Shown here piece after piece: positions 4,635-39,577 of a stretch of DNA of 40,865 nt. The stretch is taken from the UHGV virus genome UHGV-0180691. One strand, written 5' to 3'. How positions within the stretch are numbered: position 1 is the stretch's first letter; every line of letters begins with the position of its first letter. Below the pieces are notes generated by a model. The model ran no database searches. It was not told where the DNA came from and saw only the letters and a program-made list of their open reading frames with translations. The DNA comes from a virus. The position numbers and the translations under genes were made by a program.

Positions 4635-4687
4635 AAAATTTCCTTAATATGTTGTCAAAGGGATGTCAGTGATTTGTCTGCTGCGGA

Positions 4688-5059
4688 TCACTGTGCCGCT
4701 TTAAGCTTTCCGTCAACGCCGCCGTTGATCCCGAACAGCTGCCCCTGATCTTCCTGCAGGATGGTCAGCTTGCCGCCTTTGTTAACCCACATTGGTGTTT
4801 CGGTGGTGTCTTCTTCGGAGGCTTTACCGCGCGGGGTTGGGGTGACGTAGTTCAGCTTGTGCTTGATCTTGACGCGCTTCTCTTCGACGGAGTTACCCAT
4901 ACGCTCAATATCAAAGGTGAGGACTACTTTGCCTTTGGTACCGTTGTTCAGAACGCCAAGCGCGGTAGTGTTTAAAGCTGCCGCGATCTTGTTCATGAAC
5001 ACGCCGGCATCCAGTTCGCCCAGGAAATCGGGCACTACGGTCATGCGGTCATTACTCAT
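4688..5059 (-). CDS. conserved phage early protein, YfdP-like, function unknown
   Basis: 123 aa; position and size consistent with yfdP of CPS-53-like early regions. Confidence 0.45.
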   Translation of the reverse strand: MSNDRMTVVPDFLGELDAGVFMNKIAAALNTTALGVLNNGTKGKVVLTFDIERMGNSVEEKRVKIKHKLNYVTPTPRGKASEEDTTETPMWVNKGGKLTILQEDQGQLFGINGGVDGKLKAAQ

Positions 5060-5268
5060 GGTTTAACCCTCTGTGAGGCGGCTGCCACCGCCAGTGGAAC
5101 TTCTCCATACACAACAGAAAAGGGCACCTGCGCTTCGGCTATGGGTAGGAGGTCCATTTCCATAGCGCCCGGGTGGATTGGGGAATGAGCCCGTCGCCCG
5201 GTGATGCCCTTGTCTCTTGTGTAAAAAAGGTGCCCACCGATGTGATGGGCAAAGACTACACACAGCAA
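5056..5268 (-). CDS. hypothetical small ORF upstream of YfdP-like gene (doubtful)
   Basis: 70 aa; ATGA overlap with downstream gene start but TTG start and overlaps another ORF in a different frame. Confidence 0.2.
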   Translation of the reverse strand: MLCVVFAHHIGGHLFYTRDKGITGRRAHSPIHPGAMEMDLLPIAEAQVPFSVVYGEVPLAVAAASQRVKP

Positions 5269-5684
5269 TGATTTTGTTGTGGCGGTGGTGCCTCCACCTG
5301 CCGGACCGGCCAGAACCGGCGACGCTACACCTCAAGAAACGTATTCATTTCAAAAGTTGAAATAAAAACTTGTTGGCCTCGTCACGTGCGCAGAGCCGCA
5401 TTACCACAACTGGAAGCGCACTCTTTCGGTAACAAACCTGCCCCCGCAGTGAAAGAGAGAAGGAGTGCGCTTTCACGTTGTGCCCTTAAAAAGCTGGCTG
5501 TCACCCTCAAGGGGAAAGTGAGCAGCCAGAACAGGGATCACTTCTTATTGCTTTGGCCTGCTTTTAACCACATCAGGCGCGGTGGTAAGTCATTTGCGAA
5601 TCATCCGGTCATTCATACGCCACCGGCGGCTACTTCGTGGGCTTCCTGCCTGTTCGCTGTTGATGAAAATGAAGATAAAAGATA

Positions 5685-5725
5685 TTTGCGAAATGCGCAA
5701 GAAATAAAATGCGTAAAACGCAATT
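5685..5725. promoter_or_regulatory. putative left operator/promoter (OL/PL) region
   Basis: Motifs TTTGCGAAATGCGCAAG (5685-5701) and ATGCGTAAAACGCAATT (5709-5725) closely match motifs in the cI-cro intergenic region (15 of 17 identical to 6542-6558). Confidence 0.45.
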
Positions 5726-5733
5726 GAAAGGGC

Positions 5734-5766
5734 GTAAAAAAACCGCCGTGTAGGCGGTTATTTGTT
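5734..5766 (-). terminator. rho-independent terminator downstream of repressor gene (possibly bidirectional)
   Basis: Stem AACCGCC / GGCGGTT with 6-nt loop (5741-5760); 7 A on plus strand upstream gives a U-run on the minus-strand transcript. Confidence 0.7.
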
Positions 5767-5777
5767 CTTAGGGGATG

Positions 5778-6473
5778 TTATCCGTGCCGTTTAACTGACT
5801 GCGACTGGCTGATCATTACCTTGCCGAAAACGTAAAATCTGTCTTCATTGGACTTATCCACTGACCACTCCCGATATTTAGGGTTATCGGAAATGACAAG
5901 AATTTTATCTGGGATCATCTGTAATCTTTTGACGTAAATTTTATCATCAAAACCAAAGACATAAATCCCATCACCATCAAACTCATTAATCGAAATATCA
6001 ACGAATATCAAATCACCTGGTTCAATGGTATCAGCCATGCTGTCACCACGAACGTTAATCACTTTGACCGTATCTGGTGTTCTCCCACCAAATAATGCGG
6101 CGGCTCTTTCGTTGTTGTACTCAATGGACCTGATGACATCGACGACATCACTACCTTGTATATGGCCCATGCCAGCACTGGCGCTGACATCGAGCAACTC
6201 GACTCTAAACACAGGGTCACCCTCTCCATAAGCTGGATTTTTACCACTGGATTTACATACAGTATTTTCATTTGGAGATGGTGTAAAGAGTTCTGCCACG
6301 CTGACACCAAGTGCCGTAGCATATTTGCTAAGCGATTGTTCAGTAAATGACTTTTGTTTTCCAGTCTCAACCCGTGAGACGTTCGCACCGTCAATACCTA
6401 CAGCTTCAGCAAGATCTGAAATTTTCATGCCCTTTTCGAGGCGTAATTCTCTAATGCGGTTTCCTATGTTCAT
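5778..6473 (-). CDS. cI: CI-like prophage repressor (N-terminal HTH, C-terminal LexA/S24-like autopeptidase domain)
   Basis: 231 aa; N-terminal HTH (IRELRLEKGMKISDLAEAVGIDGANVSRVETG); C-terminal domain with GDSM and VKRL context typical of S24 Ser/Lys dyad; divergent from cro-like gene. Confidence 0.9.
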   Translation of the reverse strand: MNIGNRIRELRLEKGMKISDLAEAVGIDGANVSRVETGKQKSFTEQSLSKYATALGVSVAELFTPSPNENTVCKSSGKNPAYGEGDPVFRVELLDVSASAGMGHIQGSDVVDVIRSIEYNNERAAALFGGRTPDTVKVINVRGDSMADTIEPGDLIFVDISINEFDGDGIYVFGFDDKIYVKRLQMIPDKILVISDNPKYREWSVDKSNEDRFYVFGKVMISQSQSVKRHG

Positions 6474-7716: not shown

Positions 7717-8571
7717 ATGAGCACTAAATTAACGGGTTACGTTTGGGACGCTTGTGCCGCTTCTGGCATGAAGCTGTCCAGCGTTGCCATCATGGCGCGT
7801 CTGGCAGACTTCAGCAGTGATGAAGGGGTTAGCTGGCCTTCCATCGCTACCATCGCGCGCCAGATTGGTGCCGGTGAGAGCACGGTTCGCACAGCCATAT
7901 CTCAACTGGAAAAAGACGGGTGGTTAACCCGCCAGCAGCGCCGTAAAGGCAACCGCAATGCATCGAACGTTTACCAGCTCAATGTTGCGAAATTACAGGC
8001 TGCTGCTTTTTCTCACCTGTCAGATTCTGACGCATCAAATTCTGATGCCTCAAAAACCGACGCGTCAAAATCTGAGGCATCAAAAAACGATGAAAAAGGC
8101 GGTTTTCACCCGTCAGAATCTGGGGGGGATCCGTCAGTAAATACAACTACTGATCCATCAGTTAAAAAACCTTTTTGTCCGGTTGCGCCGCAACCAGACC
8201 CTGAAGTGATGATTACCGATAACGCCATCCTGGTTCTGAATCATCTGAACCTGGTTAGCGGCTCACGATACCAAAAATCAAAAACTTCTCTGGAAAACAT
8301 CCGTGCTCGCTTGCGCGAAGGTTACACCGTTGGTGACTTACAACTGGTGATTGACCTTAAGCATGAGCACTGGAACGGCAATGACGTGCAGTACCAGTAC
8401 ATGCGCCCTGAAACGCTATTTGGCCCGAAAAAGTTCGAGGGTTATCTGCAAAGCGGGATCCGTTGGGACAAGAAGGGGCGTCCACCACGTGAAAGCTGGG
8501 GTGAAAAGAAACACGATCCGATGAAGTTCGGTCCGGTTGATACCAAGATTCCAGAGGGGTTCAGAGGATGA
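7717..8571 (+). CDS. replication initiation protein (O-like, N-terminal winged-HTH; conserved phage C-terminal domain)
   Basis: 284 aa; position after cro/cII; internal low-complexity linker encoded by direct repeats (iteron-like) as in lambda O; RBS AAAGGA upstream. Confidence 0.65.
   Translation: MSTKLTGYVWDACAASGMKLSSVAIMARLADFSSDEGVSWPSIATIARQIGAGESTVRTAISQLEKDGWLTRQQRRKGNRNASNVYQLNVAKLQAAAFSHLSDSDASNSDASKTDASKSEASKNDEKGGFHPSESGGDPSVNTTTDPSVKKPFCPVAPQPDPEVMITDNAILVLNHLNLVSGSRYQKSKTSLENIRARLREGYTVGDLQLVIDLKHEHWNGNDVQYQYMRPETLFGPKKFEGYLQSGIRWDKKGRPPRESWGEKKHDPMKFGPVDTKIPEGFRG
8026..8088. repeat. four direct repeats with 15-bp periodicity (core GAYGCNTCAAAA), iteron-like, inside the replication gene
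   Basis: Cores start at 8029, 8044, 8059, 8074; followed by an A-rich stretch; encode the SDASNSDASKTDASKSEASKND linker. Confidence 0.5.
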
Positions 8572-9455
8572 CGGAAAATAAATACTGCCGCGCACTGGCT
8601 GAACTCCGTTCAAAACCAGCGCATGAATTGAAAGAAGTTGGCGATCAGTGGCGAACTCCAGATCTACTTTTTTGGGGCATCAATTCGATATTTGGCCCGA
8701 TGGCTCTGGATCTGTTTGCAGATGATAGCAATGCAAAATGCCCTGCATGGTATACCGCCGAAGATAACGCGTTGACGCAGGACTGGTCAGAACGTCTGGC
8801 AGAACTCGGTGGCGCCGCGTTTGCTAACCCGCCATACAGCCGTTCTCAGTACCATGAAAAGCAGGCCATCACTGGCATGACTCACATCATGAATCACACA
8901 ATGGCTATGCGTGATAAAGGTGGTCGTTACATATACCTCGTGAAGTCAGCCACAAGTGAAACATGGTGGCCGGAGGATGCCGATCACATCATGTTTATTC
9001 GTGGTCGTATTGGGTTTGATCTTCCTGTTTGGTTTGTTCCCGCTGACGAGAGGCAGCAACCCACCAGCGCATTTTTTGCCGGGGCAATAGCTGTTTTCGA
9101 CAAAACCTGGCGTGGTGAAAGCTTCAGCTATATCAATCGCACCGAACTGGAAGAAAAAGGGCGTGCAGCATTGTCATTGGCTCAATTCGCCGCGGCAAAA
9201 ATGGCCCTTCCTTCGGTGCCGGAAAAAGCAATGCCTACTCCAATTGCAACACCTGATGCAGAGTCGCGCATCTGGCCTCTTGAGGTTGGACTGGTGTTTA
9301 ACCAAATTGAAGGGGCTGACGCTCTACCTGTTTCACAGCAGAACAAGCTGAAAGCCAATATCAACCAGCTGTGGCTCGAACGTATGCCTACGAGTGAAAT
9401 TATCACGACCGCTGGTGGTCTCTTCAACAGCATGCAGGGGGCCGTCAATGCGTGA
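8568..9455 (+). CDS. DNA N6-adenine methyltransferase (phage Dam-like)
   Basis: 295 aa; motifs DLFADDSN and FANPPYS (NPPY catalytic motif); stop overlaps start of the next methyltransferase gene. Confidence 0.7.
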   Translation: MTENKYCRALAELRSKPAHELKEVGDQWRTPDLLFWGINSIFGPMALDLFADDSNAKCPAWYTAEDNALTQDWSERLAELGGAAFANPPYSRSQYHEKQAITGMTHIMNHTMAMRDKGGRYIYLVKSATSETWWPEDADHIMFIRGRIGFDLPVWFVPADERQQPTSAFFAGAIAVFDKTWRGESFSYINRTELEEKGRAALSLAQFAAAKMALPSVPEKAMPTPIATPDAESRIWPLEVGLVFNQIEGADALPVSQQNKLKANINQLWLERMPTSEIITTAGGLFNSMQGAVNA

Positions 9456-11385
9456 AATCATCGTTGATAACTTTGCCGGTGGTGGCGGCGCGAGTACCGG
9501 CATTGAACTGGCCATCGGGCGTAGCGTGGATATCGCTATCAACCACGACGAAAACGCTATTGCGATGCATAAGACGAATCACCCAGACACGCTGCATTAT
9601 TGCGAGTCGGTGTTTGACGTTGACCCAAGCGCAGCCACCAGCGGTAAACCTGTCGGCCTGGCCTGGTTTAGCCCTGACTGCCGCCACTTTTCCAAAGCGA
9701 AGGGCGCTAAGCCAGTTAAGAAAGAGATTCGCGGGCTGGCGTGGATTGTTCTGCGCTGGGCGCTGGCAGTACGTCCCCGAGTCATGATGCTGGAGAACGT
9801 CGAAGAATTTAAGACATGGGGCCCGCTGCTGGATGAAGAATTACGCCCGGATCCTGAGCGTGCTGGTGAAACATTCGAGGCATTTGTCGGCATGCTGTCG
9901 ACTGGTATCGCTGCGAATCACCCAGCACTGGCTGAGGTTTGCGAATTTCTTGCCATTGAGCCGCACGGCAAGCAGGCGCAACAGCTGATCGCCGGGCTTG
10001 GCTATGAGGTCGATTATCGTGAACTGCGCGCTTGTGACTATGGCGCGCCGACGATCAGAAAGCGTTTCTTCATGGTCATGCGTTGTGACGGCCGCAAGAT
10101 TCATTGGCCTGAAGCGACTCATGGGGATCCAAAATCACTGGAAGTACAAAGCGGCAAGCTGGCGCCATGGCGTACCGCGGCGGAGTGCATTGACTGGAAT
10201 ATCCCGGCCCGGTCCATCTTCGACCGCAAAAAGCCGCTGGCGGAAAATACGCTCAAACGTATCGCGCGCGGCATCCAGCGTTTCGTTATCGAGAGTGCTT
10301 CGCCGTTTATCGTTAAGTGCAACCACACCACGTCACACGGCAAATATGATTGTTTCCGTGGGCAGGAGCTCGAGGCTCCATTACAAACCATCACGAAAAC
10401 CCACGGCTATGCGCTGGCGGTACCGCATCTTACTAAATTCCGCACCGGGGCCACCGGGCAGCCAGTGACCGAGCCGGTTCCAACTGTCACCGCTGGTACG
10501 TCGGCGCGCCCGGGCGGGAATGGACATGCGCTTGGCGTAGTTGAGGCCGCCCTGACACCGTTCCTGGCTGGCAATGGCGGCAGTGAGTACCAGGCAAAGC
10601 CGCGCCCGCTGGATAAACCCGCTCATACAATCCTCAAGCAGTCCCACGCGTGCGTGGTTGCGCCGGTCATCGCCCGCCAGTTTGGCGCCAGTGTTGGGCA
10701 CAGGGCTGACGAACCGAGCGCGACGATTACTGCAGGTGGTGGCGGTAAGTCGCAGCTGGTAACTCCAACATTGATCCAGATGGGGTACGGCGAACGCCCA
10801 GGACAAGAACCGCGTGTTCTTCAACTGAATAACCCGCTCGGCACGGTCACTGCTGGTGGTAATAAGTTTGCAACGGTGAGCGCGTTCCTGGCGAAGCACT
10901 ATGGTGGGAATTACACGGGGCCGGGTGTTGGTATGGATGAGCCTGCCCATTCAGTCACTACTGTTGATCATCACGCGGTAGTTGCGTCGCACCTGGTGAA
11001 GCTGCGCGGAACCTGCCGCGACGGTCAGACCATGGATACACCTATGCCGACGATTACCGCTGGTGGCCAGCATGTTGGCGAGGTCCGGACATTCCTCGAA
11101 ACATACTGCGGTGATAGCGAGGATGAATGGCTGGTGACGATCGAGGGGGTTAAGTACCAGATCGTCGATATCGGAATGCGCATGCTGCAACCGCATGAGC
11201 TTTATAAGGCGCAGGGCTTCCCTGACGGCTACGTTATCGATCAGGACTATCGCGGCAATCGTTACGCCAAAGACAAGCAGGTAGCGCGCTGCGGTAACGC
11301 AGTACCGCCGCCGTTCGCTCGTGCTCTGGTAGAAGCAAATCTTCCTGAATTATGTGCAAATCAAAAGGCGGGTGCAGCCGCCTGA
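9448..11385 (+). CDS. DNA cytosine-5 methyltransferase with extended repeat-containing variable region
   Basis: Start at ATG 9448 (MREIIVDNFAGGGGASTG = motif I); SPDCRHFS (catalytic Cys motif IV), MLENVEEF (ENV motif VI), C-terminal LQGFP and GNAVPPPFARAL (motifs IX/X); about 360-aa region between motifs VIII and IX with repeated T(V/I)TAGG modules. Confidence 0.85.
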   Translation: MREIIVDNFAGGGGASTGIELAIGRSVDIAINHDENAIAMHKTNHPDTLHYCESVFDVDPSAATSGKPVGLAWFSPDCRHFSKAKGAKPVKKEIRGLAWIVLRWALAVRPRVMMLENVEEFKTWGPLLDEELRPDPERAGETFEAFVGMLSTGIAANHPALAEVCEFLAIEPHGKQAQQLIAGLGYEVDYRELRACDYGAPTIRKRFFMVMRCDGRKIHWPEATHGDPKSLEVQSGKLAPWRTAAECIDWNIPARSIFDRKKPLAENTLKRIARGIQRFVIESASPFIVKCNHTTSHGKYDCFRGQELEAPLQTITKTHGYALAVPHLTKFRTGATGQPVTEPVPTVTAGTSARPGGNGHALGVVEAALTPFLAGNGGSEYQAKPRPLDKPAHTILKQSHACVVAPVIARQFGASVGHRADEPSATITAGGGGKSQLVTPTLIQMGYGERPGQEPRVLQLNNPLGTVTAGGNKFATVSAFLAKHYGGNYTGPGVGMDEPAHSVTTVDHHAVVASHLVKLRGTCRDGQTMDTPMPTITAGGQHVGEVRTFLETYCGDSEDEWLVTIEGVKYQIVDIGMRMLQPHELYKAQGFPDGYVIDQDYRGNRYAKDKQVARCGNAVPPPFARALVEANLPELCANQKAGAAA

Positions 11386-13150: not shown

Positions 13151-13171
13151 TTGTATGGAGCGCTGAGCATA

Positions 13172-13864
13172 ATGAATTTACAAGAACTGGAATATACGCG
13201 GATTGAACTGCGCCGCGCGCTGGCGGATTTATCAGGATCGACAAAAGGACAGCTGCAGGCGTTCAGTGAGCATCCACCAGCAGATAAGAATAAATACCCT
13301 CGGCACCATCCTGAAATCGTCATGGAGGGTGGGGAAGGTTGTGGATCGAAGGTTGTAAAAACTCTGGCCACTCCGCTTTATGTTCTTGAGACAAGGAGCC
13401 GTCGCCGACCTTTACCGCCTATTAAGGATACGGAGTTCGCTTGTTCAGCATGGCGTCGATCGGTCAATGGTCTGGGGGCGCATTTGCAGGCATGGGTGCG
13501 GTACTGCTATGGGCATGACCTTGCTTTCCGGTACCAGAGGTTAATGTGCCAGCACGTATGGGAAGAGTTTCAGCGTCAGCATAGCGGCAAAAAAATCCAA
13601 GACCGTGTCACTAAAAAACTGGTAGGGCTTGTCTGGCTGGCGGCGCAAGAAGTTGCTGCCTCGCGTAATAACGATACCTATCAGGAGTATGCTGGAGCAG
13701 CTCTGGCGCGCATGGTCAGCGTTGAGCGTTCCACCTGGCTCAGAGTGTATTCAGGCCACTGGGCAGCTTTCAAAGCGTCGTTTTCGGAGATGGACAGCCA
13801 GGCACTAAGCGAAATTTTGACACGGTACGAAGAGTACCAAGAACTGAAAGTGGCGGAAATGTGA
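13172..13864 (+). CDS. putative late-gene antiterminator (Q-like)
   Basis: ATG at 13172 with GGAG upstream; immediately upstream of a strong intrinsic terminator and the lysis cassette, the canonical Q position; sequence family not verified. Confidence 0.5.
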   Translation: MNLQELEYTRIELRRALADLSGSTKGQLQAFSEHPPADKNKYPRHHPEIVMEGGEGCGSKVVKTLATPLYVLETRSRRRPLPPIKDTEFACSAWRRSVNGLGAHLQAWVRYCYGHDLAFRYQRLMCQHVWEEFQRQHSGKKIQDRVTKKLVGLVWLAAQEVAASRNNDTYQEYAGAALARMVSVERSTWLRVYSGHWAAFKASFSEMDSQALSEILTRYEEYQELKVAEM

Positions 13865-14550: not shown

Positions 14551-15603
14551 ATGAAAAATACTGTAAATATAAACAGTGTTGAGCTTATCAACGCTGACTG
14601 CCTGCAATACCTAGCAACCCTCCCAGATAACACCATCGACCTTATTGTTACGGATCCGCCTTATTTTAAGGTGAAGCCGAACGGCTGGGATAATCAGTGG
14701 AACGGTGACGCCGACTATCTTCGCTGGCTTGATATGTGTCTTGCCCAGTTCTGGCGAGTGCTTAAGCCTGCCGGCAGCCTGTATTTGTTTTCAGGTCACC
14801 GACTTGCATCCGATATTGAGATCATGATGCGTGAACGCTTCAACGTCATGAACCACATTATCTGGGCGAAGCCATCAGGGCGCTGGAACGGGTGTAATAA
14901 AGAAAGCCTGCGCTCTTACTTTCCCGCGACGGAACGCATCCTTTTCGCTGAGCATTATCAGGGGCCATATAAGCCGAAAAGCGACGGGTTTGCTGAGAAA
15001 AGCAACGAGGTCAAACAGCACGTCATGGCTCCGTTAATCACCTACTTTCGGGATGCACGAGCCGAACTGGGGGTCACGTCCAGGCAAATAGCTGACGCCA
15101 CCGGAAAGAAAAATATGGTGTCTCACTGGTTCGGTGCCAGTCAGTGGCAACTACCGAACGAGCAGGATTACGAAAAGCTGCAGGAATTGTTCACTCAGAT
15201 CGCCATTGAGAAGCACCGCGCCTCAGAACTCAAAGCACCGCATCACCAGCTGGTGGCCACATGGCATTCGTTGAACCGGAAATACCTTGATCTGCTGGAA
15301 GAGTACAAATCTCTTCGGCGGCATTTCTCTGTGACAGTAGCCGTGCCCTATACAGACGTCTGGACACATAAACCCGTCCAGTTCTATCCAGGCAAACACC
15401 CGTGCGAAAAGCCCGCTGATATGTTGCGGCAAATCATCAACGCCAGCAGCAGGCCCGGCGATGTGGTAGCTGATTTCTTTATGGGCTCGGGATCAACTGT
15501 TAAAGCAGCCATTGAACTGGGCCGCCAGGCTATCGGCGTAGAACTGGAAGAGGAACGTTTCAACCAGACGGTAAGTGAGGTGAGGCAGCTGGCAGGGGAA
15601 TAA
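14551..15603 (+). CDS. DNA methyltransferase, N6-adenine/N4-cytosine class (beta-type, DPPY motif)
   Basis: 350 aa; VTDPPYF (motif IV) near N-terminus and FFMGSGST (motif I, AdoMet binding) near C-terminus, the order typical of beta-class amino-methyltransferases. Confidence 0.8.
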   Translation: MKNTVNINSVELINADCLQYLATLPDNTIDLIVTDPPYFKVKPNGWDNQWNGDADYLRWLDMCLAQFWRVLKPAGSLYLFSGHRLASDIEIMMRERFNVMNHIIWAKPSGRWNGCNKESLRSYFPATERILFAEHYQGPYKPKSDGFAEKSNEVKQHVMAPLITYFRDARAELGVTSRQIADATGKKNMVSHWFGASQWQLPNEQDYEKLQELFTQIAIEKHRASELKAPHHQLVATWHSLNRKYLDLLEEYKSLRRHFSVTVAVPYTDVWTHKPVQFYPGKHPCEKPADMLRQIINASSRPGDVVADFFMGSGSTVKAAIELGRQAIGVELEEERFNQTVSEVRQLAGE

Positions 15604-21101: not shown

Positions 21102-22622
21102 ATGGGCATTCTTGAAAGAACACTGGGGGCTATTTCCCCCGGGTGGGCAGCGGCACGCGCGCGGGACCGTCTCCGGCTTAATGCTTATGAAGCGGCAAAC
21201 CCGTCACGGCTGCACAAGGCTAAAAAGCAAAGTCAGTCCGCGGACACCTCGGTATTTGCAGCAGGTCAGTCCCTGCGGGAACAGGCCCGGTGGCTCGATG
21301 AAAATCACGATCTGGTGATCGGCCTGTTCGACAAAATGGAAGACAGGGTAATCGGTGCCCACGGTATCCATGTTGAGCCCCAGCCTCTCGATCTGGAGGG
21401 AAACCTCCATTCCGAGTTCGCGGGGCAGCTTTCGGCGCTCTGGGCGGAGTGGTCCGTGCGTCCTGAAGTGACTGGCATGTTTACCCGTCCGGAAGCCGAG
21501 CGCCTGCTGTTGCGTTCTGCGCTGCGTGACGGGGAAGTGTTCACGCAACTGGTCAGGGGAAACGTACCCGGCCTGCAGCATGCCACGTCAGTACCGTTTT
21601 CTCTGGAAATGCTGGAGGCGGATTTTGTGCCGTTCAATCTTAACAGCACCGCCGGCCAGCAGGTTCGCCAGGGCATCATCGTGAACGACTGGGGGCGTCC
21701 CGTCGGCTACCGCGTTTACAAATATCATCCGGCGAACATGATGCGGTTCAGCGCGGAACTTAAAACCGTCTCTGCTGACAACATGCTTCACCTGGCGCAG
21801 CGCAAGCGGCTGCACCAGCTGCGGGGTATCAGCCTGATCCACGGAGTCATTACCCGTCTTTCGGACATCAAGGATTATGAAGAGAGCGAGCGCGTGGCCG
21901 CCCGTATTGCCGCTGCACTGGGCTTTTACATCAAGCGCGGCGATGCACAGTCACTTGGTGATGACGGTGAGTTTTCAACCCCCGGCGGGCAGCGTCACTA
22001 CGATATCGCGCCGGGCATGATTTATGACGAACTCCGCCCCGGCGAAGACCTTGGCATGGTGGAGTCAAACCGCCCGAACGTTCATCTCTACGAGTTCCGA
22101 AACGGGCAGATGCGGGCCGTGGCCGCCGGTACGCGCGGCAGTTATTCCAGCATTGCCCGGGACTATAACGGCACCTACAGCTCCCAGCGTCAGGAACTGG
22201 TGGAGAGCTTTGAAGGTTACAACGTCCTCCAGCAGTGGTTTGTCGGCCAGCACAGCCGGCCCGTTTACCGCGCATGGCTGGCGATGGCGTTGCTGAGCGG
22301 CGTTGAAGTCCCGCCGGATGTGGATCCGAATTCTCTCTATAACGCACTTTATCTCGGGCCGGTGATGCCGTGGATTGATCCGGGCAAAGAGGCGAACGCC
22401 TGGAAAGCCATTGTGCGTGGCGGCGCGGGCACCGAAGCGGAATGGGCGCGGGCCAGGGGGAAAAATCCTCAGGAGGTTAAGCGCCAGCGACTGCGTGAAA
22501 CTGAATTTAACCGTAAACACGGGCTGGTGTTTGATTCCGACGCCGCCAATGACAAAGGAGCGATGCCAGATGCAACGGCAAAACCAGACGATAAACGGCG
22601 TGAGCCGGACGATGATGATTAA
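21102..22622 (+). CDS. portal protein (lambda gpB-like)
   Basis: 506 aa; position after terminase/W; acidic C-terminus; size typical of lambda-family portal. Confidence 0.85.
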   Translation: MGILERTLGAISPGWAAARARDRLRLNAYEAANPSRLHKAKKQSQSADTSVFAAGQSLREQARWLDENHDLVIGLFDKMEDRVIGAHGIHVEPQPLDLEGNLHSEFAGQLSALWAEWSVRPEVTGMFTRPEAERLLLRSALRDGEVFTQLVRGNVPGLQHATSVPFSLEMLEADFVPFNLNSTAGQQVRQGIIVNDWGRPVGYRVYKYHPANMMRFSAELKTVSADNMLHLAQRKRLHQLRGISLIHGVITRLSDIKDYEESERVAARIAAALGFYIKRGDAQSLGDDGEFSTPGGQRHYDIAPGMIYDELRPGEDLGMVESNRPNVHLYEFRNGQMRAVAAGTRGSYSSIARDYNGTYSSQRQELVESFEGYNVLQQWFVGQHSRPVYRAWLAMALLSGVEVPPDVDPNSLYNALYLGPVMPWIDPGKEANAWKAIVRGGAGTEAEWARARGKNPQEVKRQRLRETEFNRKHGLVFDSDAANDKGAMPDATAKPDDKRREPDDDD

Positions 22623-24672
22623 CCCCCGCGCCAGCCTGGCGGGTGTCGATGCGGCGAACGGTCAGTGCTGGTACGAAATCCGCGCGCTGGCTGCCGGACG
22701 GGTCGAAATCTTCCTTTATGACGTGATCGGCGGCTGGGGCATTACTGCCCAGCAGTTCGTCACTGACTGTAAAGAGGCGGGGGTGTTTGAGGCCAGCGCG
22801 GTGGATCTGCATATCCACAGTCCCGGCGGCGATGTCATGCAGGGCTTTGCCATCTTCAACACCCTGTCTCGGCTGAAAGCGAAGATCGATATCTGGGTGG
22901 ACGGCGTGGCGGCCAGCATGGCCTCAATGATTGTCTGCCTGCCGGGCGCCACGGTGCACATGCCGGAAAACGCCTGGATTATGGTGCACAAACCATGGGG
23001 CGGTATAGCCGGGGATTCTGACGACATGCGCGATTACGCCGCATGGCTTGATCGTAACGAAGCCCTGATGCTCAGCGCCTATATGAACAAAACAGGACTG
23101 GGGCAGGAAGAGCTGGAAGCGATGCTGAAAGCGGAGACCTGGCTTAACGGTGCCGAGGCGGTGGAAAAAGGCTTCGCCGACACGCTTGAACCTGAACTGC
23201 AGGCCGCGGCCTGTGTGAATGAAAATAAACTGAAGGATTACCAGAATATGCCAGAACAGATTAAATCTCTTTTCACGCCGCGCGCCGAAGCTCCGGTGAA
23301 TCAGCCACCGCAACCTGCTCCGGTACAGGCAAACCTTAACACGCCAGCGCCACAACAGCCTGCACCGCAGATGACAAATATCGATATCACCGCGCTGGCC
23401 CAGCAGCTGCAGCAGCAGATGCAGACGGCGAACGCAGAGCGTGTGAATTCCGTCTCAGCCGTATTTGAGGCGTTCCCGGCCTTCGCGACGCTGAAGGCTG
23501 AATGTCTGGCCGACTTCACCTGCAACGCTGAAAAAGCCCGCGATAAACTGCTGCAGGCGCTGGCGGCGGGCACCACTCCGAGCGCTGGTCCGGGCGCGAT
23601 TCATCTTTATGCCGGTAACGGCAATCTGGTCGGTGATTCCATTCGCGCTGCAGTAATGACCCGAGCGGGCTATGCGCAAGCCGAAAATGATAATGCTTAC
23701 AACGGTTACACCCTGCGCGAACTGGCACGCGCCTCCCTTGTTGATCGCGGTATCGGTATCTCCGGCGCTGGCACGGCACAGGCGATGGTCGGGCTGGCGT
23801 TCACCCACAGCAGCAGCGATTTCGGCAATATCCTGATGGATGTGGCACACAAAGCGGCTCTGATGGGCTGGGAGGAAGCCACCGAAACCTTTGAACAGTG
23901 GACCCGTAAGGGCACGCTGACCGATTTCAAAACCGCGCACCGCGTAGGTCTGGAATCACTGGCATCGCTTCGCAAGGTCCGAGCCGGGGCAGAATATAAA
24001 TATGTCACCATCAAGGATCGCGGCGAGCCAATTGCCCTGGCGACCTACGGAGAACTTTTCAGCATTGACCGGCAGACCATCATCAACGATGACCTGGACA
24101 TGCTGACCCGTATCCCACAGGCAATGGGGCTTGCTGCGCGTGCCACCGTGGGCGATCTCGTTTGGGCGGTGCTGACTAGCAACCCGAAAATGTCCGATGG
24201 TAAGCCGTTATTCCACGCCGATCACGGCAACCTTGTATCCGCCGATCTGAGTATCGAAGGCCTGGATACGGCGCGTAAGGCGATGCTGCTGCAAAAATCG
24301 GGCGATCGCCGTCTGAATATTCGCCCGGCCTTTATGCTCACGCCAGTGGCAATTGAGTCACGGGCAAACCAGTTGATCAAATCAGCAAGCGTGCCGGGCG
24401 CGGATGCCAACAGCGGTATCGTGAACCCGATCCAGAACTTTGTGACGGTGGCCTCTGAGGCTCGCCTGGATGACAGCAGCCCGACGGATTACTACCTGAC
24501 CGCTGCACAGGGACGCGACACCATTGAGGTGGCATATCTCGACGGCATCGACACCCCGTATCTGGAGCAGCAGCAGGGCTTCACCGTTGACGGCGCTGCG
24601 TTTAAGGTGCGTATCGATGCCGGGGTTGCACCGCTTGACTGGCGCGGCATGGTTAAAGTCACCAAAAAATAA
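22570..24672 (+). CDS. fused prohead protease (ClpP/S49-like) - scaffold - major capsid protein (tripartite capsid gene)
   Basis: Start set at ATG 22570 (AAAGGAG 9 nt upstream; alternative ATG 22612/22615); N-terminal HIHSPGGDVMQGFAIFNTL...MVHKPWGG protease region; central Q/A/P-rich low-complexity scaffold-like region; C-terminal MCP-sized domain; strong terminator follows. Confidence 0.8.
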   Translation: MQRQNQTINGVSRTMMINPRASLAGVDAANGQCWYEIRALAAGRVEIFLYDVIGGWGITAQQFVTDCKEAGVFEASAVDLHIHSPGGDVMQGFAIFNTLSRLKAKIDIWVDGVAASMASMIVCLPGATVHMPENAWIMVHKPWGGIAGDSDDMRDYAAWLDRNEALMLSAYMNKTGLGQEELEAMLKAETWLNGAEAVEKGFADTLEPELQAAACVNENKLKDYQNMPEQIKSLFTPRAEAPVNQPPQPAPVQANLNTPAPQQPAPQMTNIDITALAQQLQQQMQTANAERVNSVSAVFEAFPAFATLKAECLADFTCNAEKARDKLLQALAAGTTPSAGPGAIHLYAGNGNLVGDSIRAAVMTRAGYAQAENDNAYNGYTLRELARASLVDRGIGISGAGTAQAMVGLAFTHSSSDFGNILMDVAHKAALMGWEEATETFEQWTRKGTLTDFKTAHRVGLESLASLRKVRAGAEYKYVTIKDRGEPIALATYGELFSIDRQTIINDDLDMLTRIPQAMGLAARATVGDLVWAVLTSNPKMSDGKPLFHADHGNLVSADLSIEGLDTARKAMLLQKSGDRRLNIRPAFMLTPVAIESRANQLIKSASVPGADANSGIVNPIQNFVTVASEARLDDSSPTDYYLTAAQGRDTIEVAYLDGIDTPYLEQQQGFTVDGAAFKVRIDAGVAPLDWRGMVKVTKK

Positions 24673-24697
24673 CGACCGTCTTCTGACGGTTTTTTTA
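24671..24697 (+). terminator. rho-independent terminator after capsid gene
   Basis: Stem ACCGTC / GACGGT with loop TTCT followed by T7. Confidence 0.65.
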
Positions 24698-24742
24698 TAT
24701 CCGGGGCGGCACGTGCTGCTCCTTTTTTGTCTGGAGAGAAAA

Positions 24743-25078
24743 ATGGCGAGAAATTATCAGCAGGACGGTAACACCCTTGATTTTCAGAATACCGGTGTGA
24801 CCGATATTCATTCGGGGGACGCTGTGCTTTCGGGGGCGCTGGTGGGCGTCGCTCATGATGACATTCCGGCAGGGCTGTGGGGCGTGCTGCACACTACCGG
24901 CGTGTTCACTCTGCCAAAGGCTGCGGAAGCGGTCACTGTTGGTCAGAAGCTTTATCTGGCAGACGGTAAACTGACGGTGGAAGCGGGTGAGGCGGCTGCA
25001 CCGAATCCCCTGGCAGGTACGGCATGGGCAGCCGCCGCGGCCGATGTCGATGCCGTTCCGGTACGGCTGGGTTATTGA
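24743..25078 (+). CDS. small head-associated protein (DUF2190-like; possible decoration/cement protein)
   Basis: ATG 24743 with GGAGAG RBS; 111 aa, Ala/Gly-rich; directly after the capsid gene. Confidence 0.45.
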   Translation: MARNYQQDGNTLDFQNTGVTDIHSGDAVLSGALVGVAHDDIPAGLWGVLHTTGVFTLPKAAEAVTVGQKLYLADGKLTVEAGEAAAPNPLAGTAWAAAAADVDAVPVRLGY

Positions 25079-27309: not shown

Positions 27310-28779
27310 ATGTCGAATTTACATGGTGTGGAAACGATCGAACTGACATCCGGCACGGTCGCGGTCATGACGATCCAGACGGCCATTATCGGCCTGGTGG
27401 GCACTGCGCCTGATGCCTCTGCCGGTACGCCAGCCAGTGCCAGCACGGGGACGCCAATCCTGGATAACGTTGTGGATTTTGCCGCGAAAATTGCCGGCAG
27501 GGCAGGAAACGTGGTGGTGGTTGAAGCTGTAGCCGGTATTCCCGATGCGGGGGATCCAGCGGAGGTGGGAACTTCCGCCATCTGGGATGCTACGGGGCTT
27601 AAGCTGACCATCACGCTTGGCTGTGATGAAGCTGGCAAGCTGACGGCTACTCCCGCAACTGTTGCTGCTGCCGTGAGGGCAGTCGCAGACGTGAAAGTAA
27701 ACGCAACGGGGGACGGTAGCGGTATTGTCTTACCGTTCAGTCTGCAGCTCGCTGGTGGCGAGGATGAGCCATTCCCCCTGAATACCCCGGTTGCAATTGT
27801 CGGTACCTCGATGCTCTCGCGTCTTGGGGACAAAGGCACGCTTAAGCAGGCGTTGACGGAAATCAACGACCAGCGAAATGCCCTGACCGTGGTAGTGCGT
27901 GTGGCGGAGGGGGCAGATGAAGCTGAGAAACGTGCAGCGGTGCTGGCCGGGATTGGCGCGCTGTCGTCGGCAAAATCCGTGACAACGTACCAGCCACGTA
28001 TCGTCATCGCACCGGGATTCAGTGAGGATGATGCGGTAGGCAAGGCACTGGAAACCGTTGCCGGCAAGCTGCGGGCTGTGGCGTATGTTGACTGTGAGTC
28101 CGGTGCCACGCTGCAGGAGGTTGTGCAGCGTCGCCAGTCTTATGGTACCCGCACCGAGCTGCTGCGTCCGCGTGTGCAGGTCAGCAACGCTGACGGTCAA
28201 CTTGTCTATCGTCCGTATTCTGCGTTTGCGGCGGGGCTGCGTGCCCGTATCGACTTTGAGAAGGGCTGGTGGTGGAGTAAATCCAACCAGGACATTAACA
28301 ACATCCTCGGCGTGGAGCAGATTGACGAGTTCATTCTGGGCGATGAAAACTGTGATGCGAATCTGCTCAACATGCAGAACGTGTCCACCATTATTCGCCG
28401 TGCAGGGTTTAAGCACTGGGGGAACCGCCTGTGCGGTACCAACCCGCAGTGGCGCTTTGAATCTGTTCGCCGTACCGCCGACGTCATCGAGGACAGTATC
28501 CAGGAAACGATGCTGGAGTACGTTGACCGCCCGCTGGACCGGGAAAACGCCGATGACATTATCGGCACCATCAATGCCTATATGCGCCAGCTGGTCGGGC
28601 TCGGTGCCATCTTCGGCGGACGTGCCTGGCTGGATGAGGAGCTTAACACCGCTGAGAGCATGGCGGCGGGCGTGCTGTACATCAACTATGACTTTGGTCC
28701 GAAATCGCCGACTGAGCTTATCAGCCTGCGCGTCCGGGTGAATAACAACTATGCGCTTGAGGAGATGCTGGCAGCATGA
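27310..28779 (+). CDS. contractile tail sheath protein
   Basis: ATG 27310 with GGAGAAAA RBS; about 490 aa; followed by tube, chaperone and tape-measure genes in canonical order. Confidence 0.8.
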   Translation: MSNLHGVETIELTSGTVAVMTIQTAIIGLVGTAPDASAGTPASASTGTPILDNVVDFAAKIAGRAGNVVVVEAVAGIPDAGDPAEVGTSAIWDATGLKLTITLGCDEAGKLTATPATVAAAVRAVADVKVNATGDGSGIVLPFSLQLAGGEDEPFPLNTPVAIVGTSMLSRLGDKGTLKQALTEINDQRNALTVVVRVAEGADEAEKRAAVLAGIGALSSAKSVTTYQPRIVIAPGFSEDDAVGKALETVAGKLRAVAYVDCESGATLQEVVQRRQSYGTRTELLRPRVQVSNADGQLVYRPYSAFAAGLRARIDFEKGWWWSKSNQDINNILGVEQIDEFILGDENCDANLLNMQNVSTIIRRAGFKHWGNRLCGTNPQWRFESVRRTADVIEDSIQETMLEYVDRPLDRENADDIIGTINAYMRQLVGLGAIFGGRAWLDEELNTAESMAAGVLYINYDFGPKSPTELISLRVRVNNNYALEEMLAA

Positions 28780-29282
28780 GCGAAAAAAACACACTACGCG
28801 TCTGGACCTTCTTCCGGCAGGGGGTCCGCATACAGGGGGCGCATGAATTCACCCCACCGACACTGTCCATTGTCAAAACTGATTTGCGTACCGGCGCGCA
28901 GGATGCGCCGTCCCCCGTGGATGACGGCATGGAGGCCCTGACCTGTCAGCTGAAATTCTACGGTATGGATACGGACATGCTGACCGCCTTCGGTTTTGTA
29001 AGCGGCAGCCGCCCGCGCTTTACGGCCTATCAGGGCTATCTGGCGAACGGTACCGCGCTTGGCACCGTCGAGGAGATCGAAGGCTTTGTGCAGACCGTTA
29101 CGCCGGATGCGCGGGGCAAGGACAATCTGTCCGAGAACGCCATCACGGTGGAAATCGCGGTGAGCTATTACCGCCAGACCAAAGACGGCAGGGAGCTTTT
29201 TGCTATTGATACCGAGCGCTTCGCGCGCCGGGTGAATGGTGTTGATGTACTGTCTGGACTGGCGGCGAAGGTCCGCCTCTGA
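28776..29282 (+). CDS. tail tube protein
   Basis: 168 aa directly after sheath, GAGGAG RBS; followed by terminator. Confidence 0.7.
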   Translation: MSEKNTLRVWTFFRQGVRIQGAHEFTPPTLSIVKTDLRTGAQDAPSPVDDGMEALTCQLKFYGMDTDMLTAFGFVSGSRPRFTAYQGYLANGTALGTVEEIEGFVQTVTPDARGKDNLSENAITVEIAVSYYRQTKDGRELFAIDTERFARRVNGVDVLSGLAAKVRL

Positions 29283-37074: not shown

Positions 37075-37094
37075 TACTGTATATAAAAACAGTG
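37075..37094. promoter_or_regulatory. LexA binding site (SOS box) in umuDC promoter
   Basis: TACTGTATATAAAAACAGTG = CTGT-N8-ACAG consensus, 16 nt upstream of umuD start codon. Confidence 0.85.
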
Positions 37095-37109
37095 TTTGAG
37101 GTGTGTGCA

Positions 37110-37529
37110 ATGGAATTCATCAGGCCAACAGAACTGCGAGAAATTATCGCTCTCCCGCTTTTCAGTGACTTAGTTCAGTGTGGTTTCCCAAGTCCTGCAG
37201 CTGATTACGTTGAACAGCGTATCGATCTCAATGAGTTACTTGTCGCTCACCCGAGTTCAACGTATTTCGTCAAAGCCGCGGGTGATTCTATGATCGAAGC
37301 CGGGATCAGCGACGGTGATCTTCTGGTGGTGGACAGCTCCAGGACTGCTGAGCATGGTGATATTGTCATCGCTGCGGTGGAAGGGGAGTTCACTGTTAAA
37401 CGCCTTCAGCTGCGCCCGACCGTGCAACTCAATCCTATGAACAGCGCCTATAGTCCGATTGTTGTGGGCAGCGAAGACACGCTGGACGTTTTCGGCGTCG
37501 TGACTTTCATCGTTAAATCTGCGAGCTGA
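37110..37529 (+). CDS. umuD: UmuD, error-prone polymerase V accessory subunit (S24 autopeptidase)
   Basis: 139 aa; near-identical stretches to E. coli UmuD as I recall it ([44 protein letters not shown]); LexA box upstream. Confidence 0.85.
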
Positions 37530-37531
37530 AT

Positions 37532-38800
37532 ATGTTTGCGCTCTGTGATGTGAATTCGTTCTACGCATCATGCGAGACGGTGTTTCGGCCAGATTTGAAA
37601 GGGCGGCCAGTGGTTGTTCTTTCGAATAATGATGGCTGTGTAATAGCACGAAGCGCCGAGGCCAAAGCCGCTGGAATTACTATGGGAGAGCCGTTCTTTA
37701 AGCAAAAGGAGCTTTTCCGGCGCGCTGGCGTTGTCTGCTTCAGCAGCAACTATGAGCTGTATGCTGATATGTCGAACCGGGTAATGACGACGCTTGAGGA
37801 AATGAGCCCCCGCGTTGAAATTTACAGTATCGATGAAGCTTTTTGTGACCTGACGGGCGTTAGGAACTGCCGGGACCTGACTGACTTTGGCAAAGAGATC
37901 CGCGCTACAGTTCTGAAGCGAACGCACTTGACTGTCGGGGTTGGCATTGCCCAGACAAAGACATTGGCGAAGCTTGCCAATCACGCAGCGAAGAAATGGC
38001 AGCGCCAGACCGGCGGGGTAGTGGACCTGTCGAACATTGACCGTCAGCGGCGGTTACTGGCTATTGTACCTGTGGAGGATGTATGGGGTGTCGGCAGACG
38101 CATTAGCAAAAAGCTGAACGCCATGGGCATCAAAACAGCTCTGGACCTCTCAGAACAAAGCACCTGGATTATCCGTAAACACTTTAACGTTGTACTCGAG
38201 CGAACTGTCCGGGAACTGCGCGGTGAACCATGTCTGGAGCTTGAAGAGTTTGCGCCGGCAAAGCAGGAAATCGTGTGCAGCAGGTCTTTTGGTGAACGCG
38301 TCACCGAATACGAACAGATGCGGCAAGCTATTTGCAGCTATGCGGCGCGTGGTGCCGAAAAGCTTCGGGGCGAGCATCAGTATTGCCGCTTTATCTCTGC
38401 CTTCGTGAAAACCTCTCCATTCGCGCTTAATGAGCCGTATTACGGTAATAGCGCTTCAATGAAGCTTCTCATACCTACACAGGATTCCCGCGACATTATC
38501 AACGCCGCAGTAAAGTGCCTGGACAAAATCTGGAAGGATGGTCACCGGTACCAGAAGGCAGGAATCATGCTTGGGGATTTTTTCAGCCAGGGTGTGGCCC
38601 AACTTAACTTGTTCGACGATAACGCCCCGCGGGCCGGCAGCGAAAGGTTGATGGAGGTGCTTGATCACTTGAACGACAAAGATGGAAAAGGCACCCTGTA
38701 CTTCGCGGGGCAGGGCATTCAGCAGCAGTGGCAGATGAAACGAGAAATGTTGTCGCCGCGATATACGACGAGATATTCAGATCTGCTAAGAGTCCGATAA
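37532..38800 (+). CDS. umuC: UmuC, Y-family DNA polymerase V catalytic subunit
   Basis: 422 aa; N-terminal [15 protein letters not shown] and SIDEAF motifs of Y-family polymerases; immediately downstream of umuD. Confidence 0.9.
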
Positions 38801-38932: not shown

Positions 38933-39577
38933 ATGTTTGCTGATTTTGGTATCGTGAATTTCTGGACGTACCTGCTTGGTGCGACGCTGATCGTCCTTGC
39001 GCCTGGCCCTGAAACCATGTTCGTGATTAAAACGAGCATCACCAGCGGCATCAAGCGGGGCTTTGCTGCCATATTTTCCATTCTACTGAGCGACGTTATT
39101 CTGGTTCTGCTGGCATGGTGTGGGCTGGCCGCGGTCATAAGCTCAACCCCTGCCTTGTTTAACGCCATCAAATACGCAGGCGCTGTTTATCTTTTCTATC
39201 TCGGTGTCCAGACGATACGCGCTATCTTTAAGCAAACTGTCGAAACAAGTGAGGAAAAGAACTCTTCAGCTGATACCGGGGGGATCATCGGACGCGGAAT
39301 GCTGGTTACTCTTCTGAATCCAAAAACACTGCTGTTCTATATCTCTTTCTTCGCCCAGTTTATCAATGTTCAGGCTGAACACTCCTGGATGGCGTTCATC
39401 ATTCTGGCAGCAGTGATGTTCGCAATTACTCTCGTTTATTTCGGCTTTCTCGTTTTCTGCGGCTCTTATCTGCTCAGTCGTCTGAAAGGTAATCGTAGAT
39501 TATCGGCGATTGGAAACGCGTTGGTAGGGATGTTCTTCATTGGATTTGCAGCACGGCTCGCAAGCGCAACTTCTTAA
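38933..39577 (+). CDS. leuE: LysE/RhtB-family amino-acid exporter (LeuE/YeaS-like)
   Basis: 214 aa, about six predicted TM helices; strong similarity to E. coli LeuE as recalled (MFAEYGVLNYWTYLVGA...); GGAG RBS. Confidence 0.75.
   Translation: MFADFGIVNFWTYLLGATLIVLAPGPETMFVIKTSITSGIKRGFAAIFSILLSDVILVLLAWCGLAAVISSTPALFNAIKYAGAVYLFYLGVQTIRAIFKQTVETSEEKNSSADTGGIIGRGMLVTLLNPKTLLFYISFFAQFINVQAEHSWMAFIILAAVMFAITLVYFGFLVFCGSYLLSRLKGNRRLSAIGNALVGMFFIGFAARLASATS

Follow-up and report, generated by a model that had tools for sequence, protein, structure and literature searches.

A Gifsy-2-type protease, scaffold and capsid fusion gene with a candidate internal translation start in a probable contractile-tailed prophage

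In phage HK97, the capsid protein gp5 is a fusion of a delta domain and a capsid domain, the gp4 protease is encoded by a separate gene directly upstream, and the shell has covalent cross-links and no cement protein. A tripartite fusion occurs in Salmonella phage Gifsy-2, where the protease and scaffold are reportedly removed by proteolysis, and the capsid domain and a decoration protein are said to form a T=7 shell. The Gifsy-2 gene (STM1034.3n) is described as a tripartite capsid gene and as a fusion of protease and coat protein (Effantin et al. 2010, Virology 402:355), as far as the citing passages in PMC12315714 and PMC8538268 convey, the coat fusion being mentioned in the former. In phage lambda, protease and scaffold share one frame, and translation from an in-frame start inside gene C yields the scaffold protein Nu3 (NC_001416: C 4418-5737, nu3 5132-5737).

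Here, a stretch of 40,865 nucleotides from the viral genome UHGV-0180691 (the window), apparently a nearly complete prophage, was analyzed around an open reading frame that an original prediction had described as prohead protease, scaffold and major capsid protein fused in the Gifsy-2 manner. We are confident that this is a Gifsy-2-type tripartite gene for the head shell, carried by a temperate myovirus of enterobacteria with a lambda-like packaging and head module and a P2-like contractile tail. A single frame is predicted to encode a ClpP-like serine protease (residues ~34-206), a flexible linker with a helical scaffold-like segment (~227-335), and an HK97-fold capsid protein (~345-700).

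22555..22560, + strand: Shine-Dalgarno sequence AAGGAG of the full-length start, 9 nt 5' of ATG 22570
22570..24672, + strand: full tripartite ORF, an uninterrupted frame of 700 aa plus stop, from ATG 22570 to TAA 24670-24672

The predicted single ORF of 700 aa can be read directly from the sequence. Its ATG is located within the 3' end of the portal gene, roughly 30 codons 5' of a conserved WY motif, and is preceded by a Shine-Dalgarno (SD) sequence with an anti-SD duplex energy of -7.9 kcal/mol; an ATG with a strong SD recurs at this place in the Chris1, Gifsy-2 and F10 clades, even though residues 1-14 of the protein are poorly conserved. ATG 22612 and ATG 22615, corresponding to the start in the annotation of phage Chris1, were considered as the primary start and rejected, because their SD sequences are weak (-2.6 and -3.2 kcal/mol) and the upstream strong-SD ATG is kept across clades.

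The original prediction had named a frameshift or sequencing error separating protease and capsid as its possible undoing, and this was checked. Relatives without the fusion are known, for example Vibrio phage K265, in which a 240-aa ClpP-like protease is followed by a separate capsid gene, and nothing specific favors the idea that an error of sequencing or assembly joined two genes here. The ORF matches family profiles of 652 and 668 positions end to end, the same fused frame is found at more than 80 independent loci and in more than 70 deposited phage genomes, and the identical 700-aa protein is encoded on three independent metagenome contigs. As the profile matches are full-length and the fused loci independent, a frameshift artefact can be dismissed as the source of the fusion; this alternative, to which we assign a negligible probability, is effectively refuted already.

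22669..23187, + strand: ClpP-type (S14) protease domain, residues ~34-206, from Pfam, NCBIfam and solved ClpP chains
22915-22917, + strand: catalytic Ser116, from the ClpP alignment
22987-22989, + strand: catalytic His140, from the ClpP alignment
23134-23136, + strand: Glu189, at the position of the ClpP Asp, from the ClpP alignment

Annotation of the ORF with Pfam, which the original prediction had proposed as a check, returned CLP_protease followed by Phage_capsid_4, and with the further tools described below each element of that prediction was confirmed. The CLP_protease match covers residues 76-205 (E 2.8e-28), and the curated model NF045542 (Clp_rel_HeadMat, "head maturation protease, ClpP-related") matches residues 46-205 with 189 bits against a cut-off of 120. 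The two motifs quoted for the protease were both located, HIHSPGGDVMQGF at residues 81-93 and MVHKPWGG at residues 138-145. Solved ClpP chains match the N-terminal domain down to E 8e-16 with the catalytic serine and histidine aligned, so that the lack of protease motifs on proper alignment, also named beforehand as a failing of the reading, does not apply: Ser116 lies in the ClpP motif GxAASMA and His140 in HxPxGG. The AlphaFold2 (AF2) model of this domain has a pLDDT of 70-89. The third triad residue is Glu189, in place of the Asp of cellular ClpP, and this substitution is what would favor an inactive, degenerate ClpP fold that serves only as scaffold while a host or other phage protease processes the capsid. 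Ser116, His140 and Glu189 are, however, all invariant in eight diverse members, the first two in canonical ClpP motif contexts across proteins only 50% identical; the NF045542 cut-off is exceeded, and the Pfam and PHROG matches in the interval between the portal and tail genes include no other protease gene. We regard an inactive domain as very improbable.

23278..23385, + strand: P/Q/A-rich linker of variable length, residues ~237-272, from composition, indels and low pLDDT
23386..23565, + strand: helical scaffold-like segment, residues ~273-332, from the AF2 model
23602..24669, + strand: major capsid protein domain, residues ~345-700, from Pfam and a profile match to solved capsids

The low-complexity middle region had been described as rich in Q, A and P, and residues 236-272 indeed contain 10 P, 6 A and 6 Q among 37. 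Linker length varies through indels among homologues, and a pLDDT below 50 over residues 210-272 predicts disorder. Three AF2 helices follow at residues 273-300, 303-314 and 320-332 (pLDDT 60-83), a stretch (~273-332) in which the Pfam search matched no family; comparison with Gifsy-2, lambda Nu3 and the HK97 delta domain suggests that this segment may act as the scaffold. The expected capsid-sized C-terminal domain matches Pfam Phage_capsid_4 (PF25209) over residues 389-697 (E 5.6e-50) as well as PF10124. A profile built from 16 sequences of the domain matches the solved capsid proteins with Mu gpT domains 8rkc and 8rkx (E 5e-10), where a single-sequence search of the PDB with residues 206-700 gave marginal matches only (E 0.006). 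With an input alignment of 35 close homologues (76-96% identity), AF2 modeled the full protein poorly (mean pLDDT 48); the usable parts are the protease domain and the three helices at 273-332. Because AF2 gave no reliable model of the capsid domain (pLDDT <50), its fold is assigned from sequence homology, which points to a Phage_capsid_4, Mu gpT-like protein of HK97 fold. The conserved capsid block starts at HxxAGNGN, and the N-terminus of the mature capsid protein probably lies between residues ~333 and 350.

At the family level, the ORF scores 921.2 bits against NF045540 ([quoted passage not shown]; cut-off 475), residues 45-698 aligning to profile positions 2-651 of 652, and it matches PHROG_133 end to end (E 4e-286). 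NF045541, the type 2 family with an S78 protease, reaches 371 bits, below its cut-off of 525, and aligns only to residues 243-697; the protease in the window is ClpP-type, not S78, and the ORF does not belong to type 2. Together with a collinear alignment to the Gifsy-2 protein at 50% identity and 69% positives (a single BLASTP alignment over 678 aa that covers all three segments), the NF045540 score bears out the Gifsy-2-type tripartite reading.

21102..22622, + strand: lambda-family portal protein (Pfam Phage_portal_2, E 1.2e-88)
24674..24728, + strand: two tandem intrinsic-terminator-like hairpins with T-runs (hairpins 24674-24691 and 24703-24722)
24743..25078, + strand: head decoration (cement) protein, 111 aa (Pfam Phage_cement_2, E 5.5e-23; PHROG_122 head decoration)
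27310-28779, + strand: tail sheath (PHROG_23 tail sheath, E 2.4e-108)
28776-29282, + strand: tail tube (Pfam Phage_tube on a contig carrying an identical gene)

The genes around the ORF support this placement. Upstream lie a gpA-type large terminase (Pfam GpA_ATPase and GpA_nuclease), a gpW-like head-tail adaptor matching PHROG_118, and the portal gene, whose last 53 nt overlap the fusion gene, in the same manner as in Gifsy-2 and F10. The strong terminator anticipated 3' of the ORF consists of two hairpins that together fold at -24.9 kcal/mol (z -3.7), and phages mEp213 and Ayreon have a terminator annotated at the equivalent position. A Q-type antiterminator is encoded upstream, and the hairpins probably stabilise or attenuate the late transcript. 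The cement protein that follows is 40% identical to the protein encoded 3' of the Gifsy-2 capsid gene.

The tail is contractile, as had been predicted, instead of the siphovirus type of Gifsy-2. An FII-like connector precedes it, and one downstream block holds sheath, tube and homologues of P2 gpU, gpX, gpD, gpW/gp25, gpJ and gpI (PHROG baseplate and tail proteins); on the contig with the identical gene, Pfam likewise reports Phage_sheath_1, Phage_tube, Phage_P2_GpU, Phage_tail_X, Phage_GPD, GPW_gp25, Baseplate_J and Tail_P2_I. Temperate phages routinely recombine heads and tails of different lineages. A sheath is present in 16/16 related viral contigs that were scored as tail-typed and are at least 70% identical, and the protein cluster at 96% identity has 1,430 members. 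Fusion with a contractile tail is the norm for the whole clade, including the deposited phages Chris1 and yong2, and the combination is already known. Given the Chris1 and yong2 layout, the 16 sheath-bearing contigs and the size of the cluster, the finding is therefore ordinary: the gene was correctly recognised and belongs to a catalogued protein family that NCBI already names, and "prohead protease/scaffold/major capsid fusion" is a better annotation than "Clp protease", the label in several deposited genomes.

23233..23250, + strand: candidate internal translation start, with AAGGA at 23233-23237, a 10-nt spacer and ATG at 23248-23250 (Met227)

In addition to the full-length start, the ORF contains a candidate start in its interior. 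Met227 falls at the junction of protease and linker, and initiation there is predicted to yield a 474-aa scaffold-capsid protein without the protease. The ATG and an AGGA upstream of it are invariant across all family loci examined; among 24 distinct sequences the AGGA, 10 nt 5' of the ATG, does not change even though the residues it encodes do (E/Q/K, then E/D). The -5 codon ends in G in 26/26 representatives, compared with a gene-wide frequency of 0.38-0.39 for K and E codons. When alignment columns were ranked by conserved SD-likeness, the best 4 of 646 were those at ATG 23248, and the GC minimum of the gene (31.7% vs 58.3%) is centred on the same ATG. RNA folding around the internal start gave no significant structure (z -0.79), an observation that fits an open initiation region and is not evidence by itself.

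The patch at 23233-23250 also has a reading without a second product, in which only the full-length 77-kDa polypeptide is made, a protease and a scaffold come attached to every capsid subunit, and the conserved nucleotides are an intergenic relic, a ribosome pause for protease folding, or the by-product of a peptide motif such as a Met-Pro processing site. Met227-Pro228 is invariant at the protein level and could equally be a cleavage or recognition motif, and the window has a modest SD at the internal site (-5.5 kcal/mol), weaker than that of the main start. Protein constraint can moreover mimic an SD signal, since conserved Gly-Gly-Asp codons produce conserved SD-like strings elsewhere in this gene, near residues 93 and 153. 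Our literature search on Gifsy-2 and capsid/protease fusions, the coverage of which did not extend to the primary Gifsy-2 paper, retrieved no account of two products or of the expression or processing of such fusions. Against this reading, a relic would not fix a synonymous position in every representative while neighbouring synonymous sites are saturated, nor would it keep the GC minimum within 6 nt of the internal ATG, as is the case in 23/26 representatives, and at the SD it is the encoded residues that vary, not the nucleotides. The same feature also recurs at the same junction in the type 2 family, whose protease is not homologous: an invariant ATG is found there in 32/32 representatives, with a mean SD energy of -7.9 kcal/mol and often the sequence AAGGAGG, and its column ranks first of 657. 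We consider production of the full-length polypeptide alone a tenable possibility, on the doubtful side.

On balance, these patterns lead us to lean slightly toward translation of the gene from the conserved internal start at 23248 as well, as in lambda C/Nu3. Retention of the signal in families with unrelated proteases (ClpP and S78) would imply convergent retention of that strategy. Whether "tripartite" capsid genes are best described as nested gene pairs, encoding a protease-free main shell subunit and a full-length form that delivers a limited number of tethered proteases, is in our judgment evenly poised.

For this locus we infer processing, stoichiometry, T number and internal-start use, and family knowledge suggests the following course of assembly. 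A procapsid built from capsid domains would form on the lambda-type portal and enclose the protease and scaffold parts. If the internal start is used as well, the main building block would be the protease-free scaffold-capsid protein from Met227, equivalent to HK97 gp5, and the full-length protein would supply fewer, built-in copies of the protease, much as lambda makes Nu3 inside gene C. The protease would then cut away all residues ahead of the capsid domain, and a mature capsid protein of ~38 kDa would remain; DNA packaging would be accompanied by expansion of the shell, which the 111-aa cement protein would subsequently stabilise. A functional internal start would explain how fusion genes set the ratio of protease to capsid.

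Among described systems, the locus is close to Citrobacter phage Chris1 (ON041214; fusion protein 89.5% and sheath 86.5% identical at the amino acid level) and Hafnia phage yong2 (MZ516527; 68% and 71%), for the latter of which a literature search found no paper. Both combine the fusion with a contractile-tail module in the gene order of the window, and they differ only in sequence divergence and in annotation, the gene being called "Clp protease" with annotated starts 3' of the strong-SD ATG. Gifsy-2 has the same order of ClpP-like protease, central segment and capsid protein, flanked upstream by a lambda-family portal gene with an overlapping end and downstream by a Phage_cement_2 gene, and it too has the invariant internal ATG, with GAGGAG as SD; the difference is in the lambda-like siphovirus tail genes that follow there (Z, U, V, G, T, H and others).

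With lambda, the window shares the terminase, W and portal context and a separate decoration protein. The families of lambda gpC, gpE and gpD were not found in the head module, in contrast to the gpA-type terminase and the portal. The gpC protease is an S49 peptidase that aligns only weakly to the window protease (hhalign probability 48%); gpE is the product of a separate gene and has no detectable sequence similarity to the window capsid domain. In lambda, D comes before the capsid gene E; in the window the order is reversed, with the cement gene after the capsid gene, and its product is a Phage_cement_2 protein, not a gpD-family one. Type 2 fusions (NF045541; Rhodobacter phage RcHotPocket gp10) share the layout of protease, linker and capsid, the Phage_capsid_4 family (36% identity over residues 356-696) and the conserved internal ATG with SD at the junction, and differ in having Peptidase_S78 where the window has a ClpP-type protease. 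HK97 gp4 likewise has a different fold (S78), and the predicted internal product of the window, with a scaffold-like part of ~120 aa ahead of the capsid domain, shares the architecture of gp5. If the internal start is functional, this one gene would link the strategies of lambda, with its nested C/Nu3, and of HK97, with its fusion of delta domain and capsid.

The original prediction of one 700-aa reading frame joining a protease, a scaffold-like segment and a capsid protein was borne out by database searches. The frame runs without interruption for 700 codons from ATG 22570 to TAA 24672, and the sequence motifs cited for that prediction were found within it. Pfam places CLP_protease at residues 76-205 (E 2.8e-28) and Phage_capsid_4 at residues 389-697 (E 5.6e-50; a match to Mu-like gpT is weaker), and the anticipated low-complexity region was located at residues 236-272, which are enriched in P, Q and A. 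The N-terminal domain aligns with solved ClpP chains (best E 8e-16), with Ser116 inside a GxAASMA motif and His140 inside HxPxGG; these two residues and Glu189, which occupies the Asp position of ClpP, are invariant among eight members sharing only ~50% identity. A profile of 16 C-terminal-domain sequences matches the solved Mu-gpT-type capsid proteins 8rkc and 8rkx (E 5e-10). Domain boundaries are approximate, taken from an AF2 model and alignments:

residues ~34-206, protease (AF2 pLDDT 70-89)
residues 210-272, disordered stretch (model and alignments)
residues 273-332, three helices (pLDDT 60-83)
from ~residue 345, conserved capsid block beginning at HxxAGNGN (alignments)

PHROG_133 aligns end to end with the fusion protein (E 4e-286), which also scores 921 bits against the curated NCBIfam Gifsy-2-type model NF045540 ([quoted passage not shown]), for which the cut-off is 475. 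Judged by sequence, the gene belongs to the Gifsy-2-type family, carrying every defining feature that sequence can address. Membership of the type-2 S78-protease fusion family was ruled out, as its model gave 371 bits, below a cut-off of 525.

The start at 22570 is preceded at 9 nt by AAGGAG (Shine-Dalgarno (SD) energy -7.9 kcal/mol), whereas SDs are weak at the ATGs further on, 22612 and 22615. A strong-SD ATG ~30 codons ahead of a conserved WY motif is shared by the Chris1, Gifsy-2 and F10 clades, and the fusion gene start overlaps the portal gene by 53 nt, an overlap of a kind also present in relatives. The terminator expected after the frame is present as two hairpins with T-runs (-24.9 kcal/mol jointly, z -3.7), and phages mEp213 and Ayreon have terminators annotated at the matching position:

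24674-24691, hairpin with T-run
24703-24722, hairpin with T-run

In deposited annotations of Citrobacter phage Chris1 and Hafnia phage yong2 the fusion gene is labelled only "Clp protease", and in both the annotated start falls downstream of the conserved strong-SD ATG: by 12 codons in Chris1 (L001, 13702), and in yong2 (L002, 4566) 58 codons past the point where the tblastn alignment begins. A single assembly-derived protein (P0106, 1,022 aa) joins Phage_portal_2, protease and capsid domains, probably through a frameshift or gene-calling read-through at the portal/capsid overlap. [quoted passage not shown]

The possibility that a frameshift or sequencing error had created the fusion was set aside, since the identical 700-aa protein occurs on three independent metagenome contigs and full-length matches exist in >70 deposited phage genomes, among them Pseudomonas F10 and MD8, E. 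coli mEp213 and mEp043, and Stx2 phages. The fusion-protein name is already attached to the nearest named cluster, which comprises 1,430 member sequences (Enterobacter hormaechei, 96% identity), and at least 583 stretches of the viral contig collection encode relatives. The fused gene is neither an artefact nor rare. An unfused relative is found in Vibrio phage K265 (L094, 3071-4997), where a 240-aa ClpP-like protease with 41% identity to residues 1-217 of the window protein precedes a capsid gene of its own, coding for 391 aa and of the HK97 family (Phage_capsid). The protease module therefore has capsid partners from different families.

From what is known of the family, capsid domains would build the procapsid shell on the portal, enclosing the protease and scaffold parts, and the serine protease would then remove everything N-terminal of the capsid domain, presumably cutting between residues ~333 and 350. 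The shell would expand while DNA is packaged, followed by binding of the cement protein.

The fusion itself is already known, and the sole lead worth an experiment is a candidate internal start at Met227 (ATG 23248), where the protease domain ends. Across 82 family loci, AGGA precedes this ATG at 10-nt spacing in 24/24 distinct upstream sequences, while the residues encoded by the AGGA region vary (E, Q or K, then E or D). In all 26 representatives (below 90% identity) the -5 codon ends in G, compared with a gene-wide G-ending fraction of 0.38-0.39 for Lys and Glu codons, and neighbouring synonymous sites are freely variable. The four best conserved anti-SD pairings among 646 alignment columns all lie at this ATG. 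In the window, the 60-nt segment of the gene with the lowest GC is also centred there (31.7% vs 58.3%), and in 23 of the 26 representatives the minimum falls no more than 6 nt from the internal ATG. No significant RNA structure was detected around ATG 23248.

Met227-Pro228 is invariant, and this conserved Met-Pro could instead be a processing motif rather than a start; the internal SD in the window is only moderate, and SD-like strings elsewhere in the gene also arise from conserved Gly-Gly-Asp codons. In the type-2 family (RcHotPocket gp10), which shares the capsid domain and has an S78 protease non-homologous to that of the window, 32/32 representatives place an ATG at this same junction between protease and linker. 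The SD there averages -7.9 kcal/mol and often reads AAGGAGG (-11.6); it surpasses the SD of the annotated start, and the column comes first among 657. Lambda offers a precedent, with nu3 (5132-5737) nested in frame within C (4418-5737). We place at even, or a shade better, the chance that the gene yields two products, the full-length protease-scaffold-capsid protein and a 474-aa scaffold-capsid protein initiated at Met227, the latter with an architecture like that of HK97 gp5. Two products, if true, would set the protease-to-shell ratio; no description of them from such fusion genes was found in the literature searched.

In gene content the window resembles a nearly complete prophage, with the LysE-type translocator at its right end probably representing host flank:

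720-1883 (-), integrase with Arm-DNA-binding domain
5778-6473 (-), CI-like HTH and S24 repressor
13151-13864 (+), Q-type antiterminator
38933-39577 (+), LysE-type translocator
8568-9455 (+), Dam-family N6-adenine methylase
9394-11385 (+), 663-aa ORF with an N-terminal match to C-5 cytosine methylase
14551-15603 (+), N6_N4_Mtase, directly ahead of the lysis genes
37092-37529 (+), UmuD-like S24 peptidase
37532-38800 (+), 422-aa gene with PHROG_1268 "DNA polymerase" match

The three DNA methyltransferase-like genes may serve anti-restriction functions, and the 422-aa gene presumably encodes a Y-family polymerase of the UmuC kind, brought along as cargo behind the tail-fibre genes.

The cement gene is followed by a tail block encoding an FII-like connector, neck protein, baseplate spike, sheath, tube and tape-measure protein, with homologues of P2 gpU, X, D, W/gp25, J and I:

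24743-25078, Phage_cement_2 protein (111 aa), just downstream of the fusion gene
27310-28779, tail sheath

The same layout is present in Chris1 (fusion 89.5%, sheath 86.5% identity) and yong2 (68% and 71%), so the combination of fusion gene and contractile tail is already known. Tail typing covered 83 related loci, made up of 80 viral contigs and the records of Chris1, yong2 and Gifsy-2. The window-type sheath was found in 16/16 tail-typed viral contigs with at least 70% identity, two further contigs gave only a partial sheath match, and the clade at 50-57% identity mostly carries a lambda gpV-type tail. The more distant myoviruses E. coli vB_EcoM-705R4 and Vibrio Valp1 combine the same sheath type with lambda-like heads in which C/Nu3, D and E are separate genes, and the lineage is therefore an ordinary head/tail mosaic in which a Gifsy-2-type gene and a cement gene stand in place of the C-D-E block. 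Viral contig L052 (IMGVR_UViG_2883423733_000001) encodes a fusion protein of the 55%-identity clade; the locus also gives weak matches to the window sheath (35% identity, covering 22% of its length) and FII protein (37%), and may represent a second, independent pairing of the fusion head gene with a different contractile tail.

The literature treats the Gifsy-2 gene as a protease-coat fusion (Effantin et al. 2010, as cited in PMC12315714). In direct comparison, the Gifsy-2 product is 50% identical to the window protein and fully collinear over 678 residues, in agreement with the arrangement first proposed, and a protein encoded downstream of its capsid gene is 40% identical to the window cement protein. 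The proposed contrast in tails was also correct, because the window has sheath and P2-like genes whereas Gifsy-2 has lambda-like Z, U, V, G, T and H. Relative to lambda itself, the terminase, W and portal genes of the window are lambda-type, whereas its protease, capsid and decoration proteins fall outside the lambda C, E and D families.
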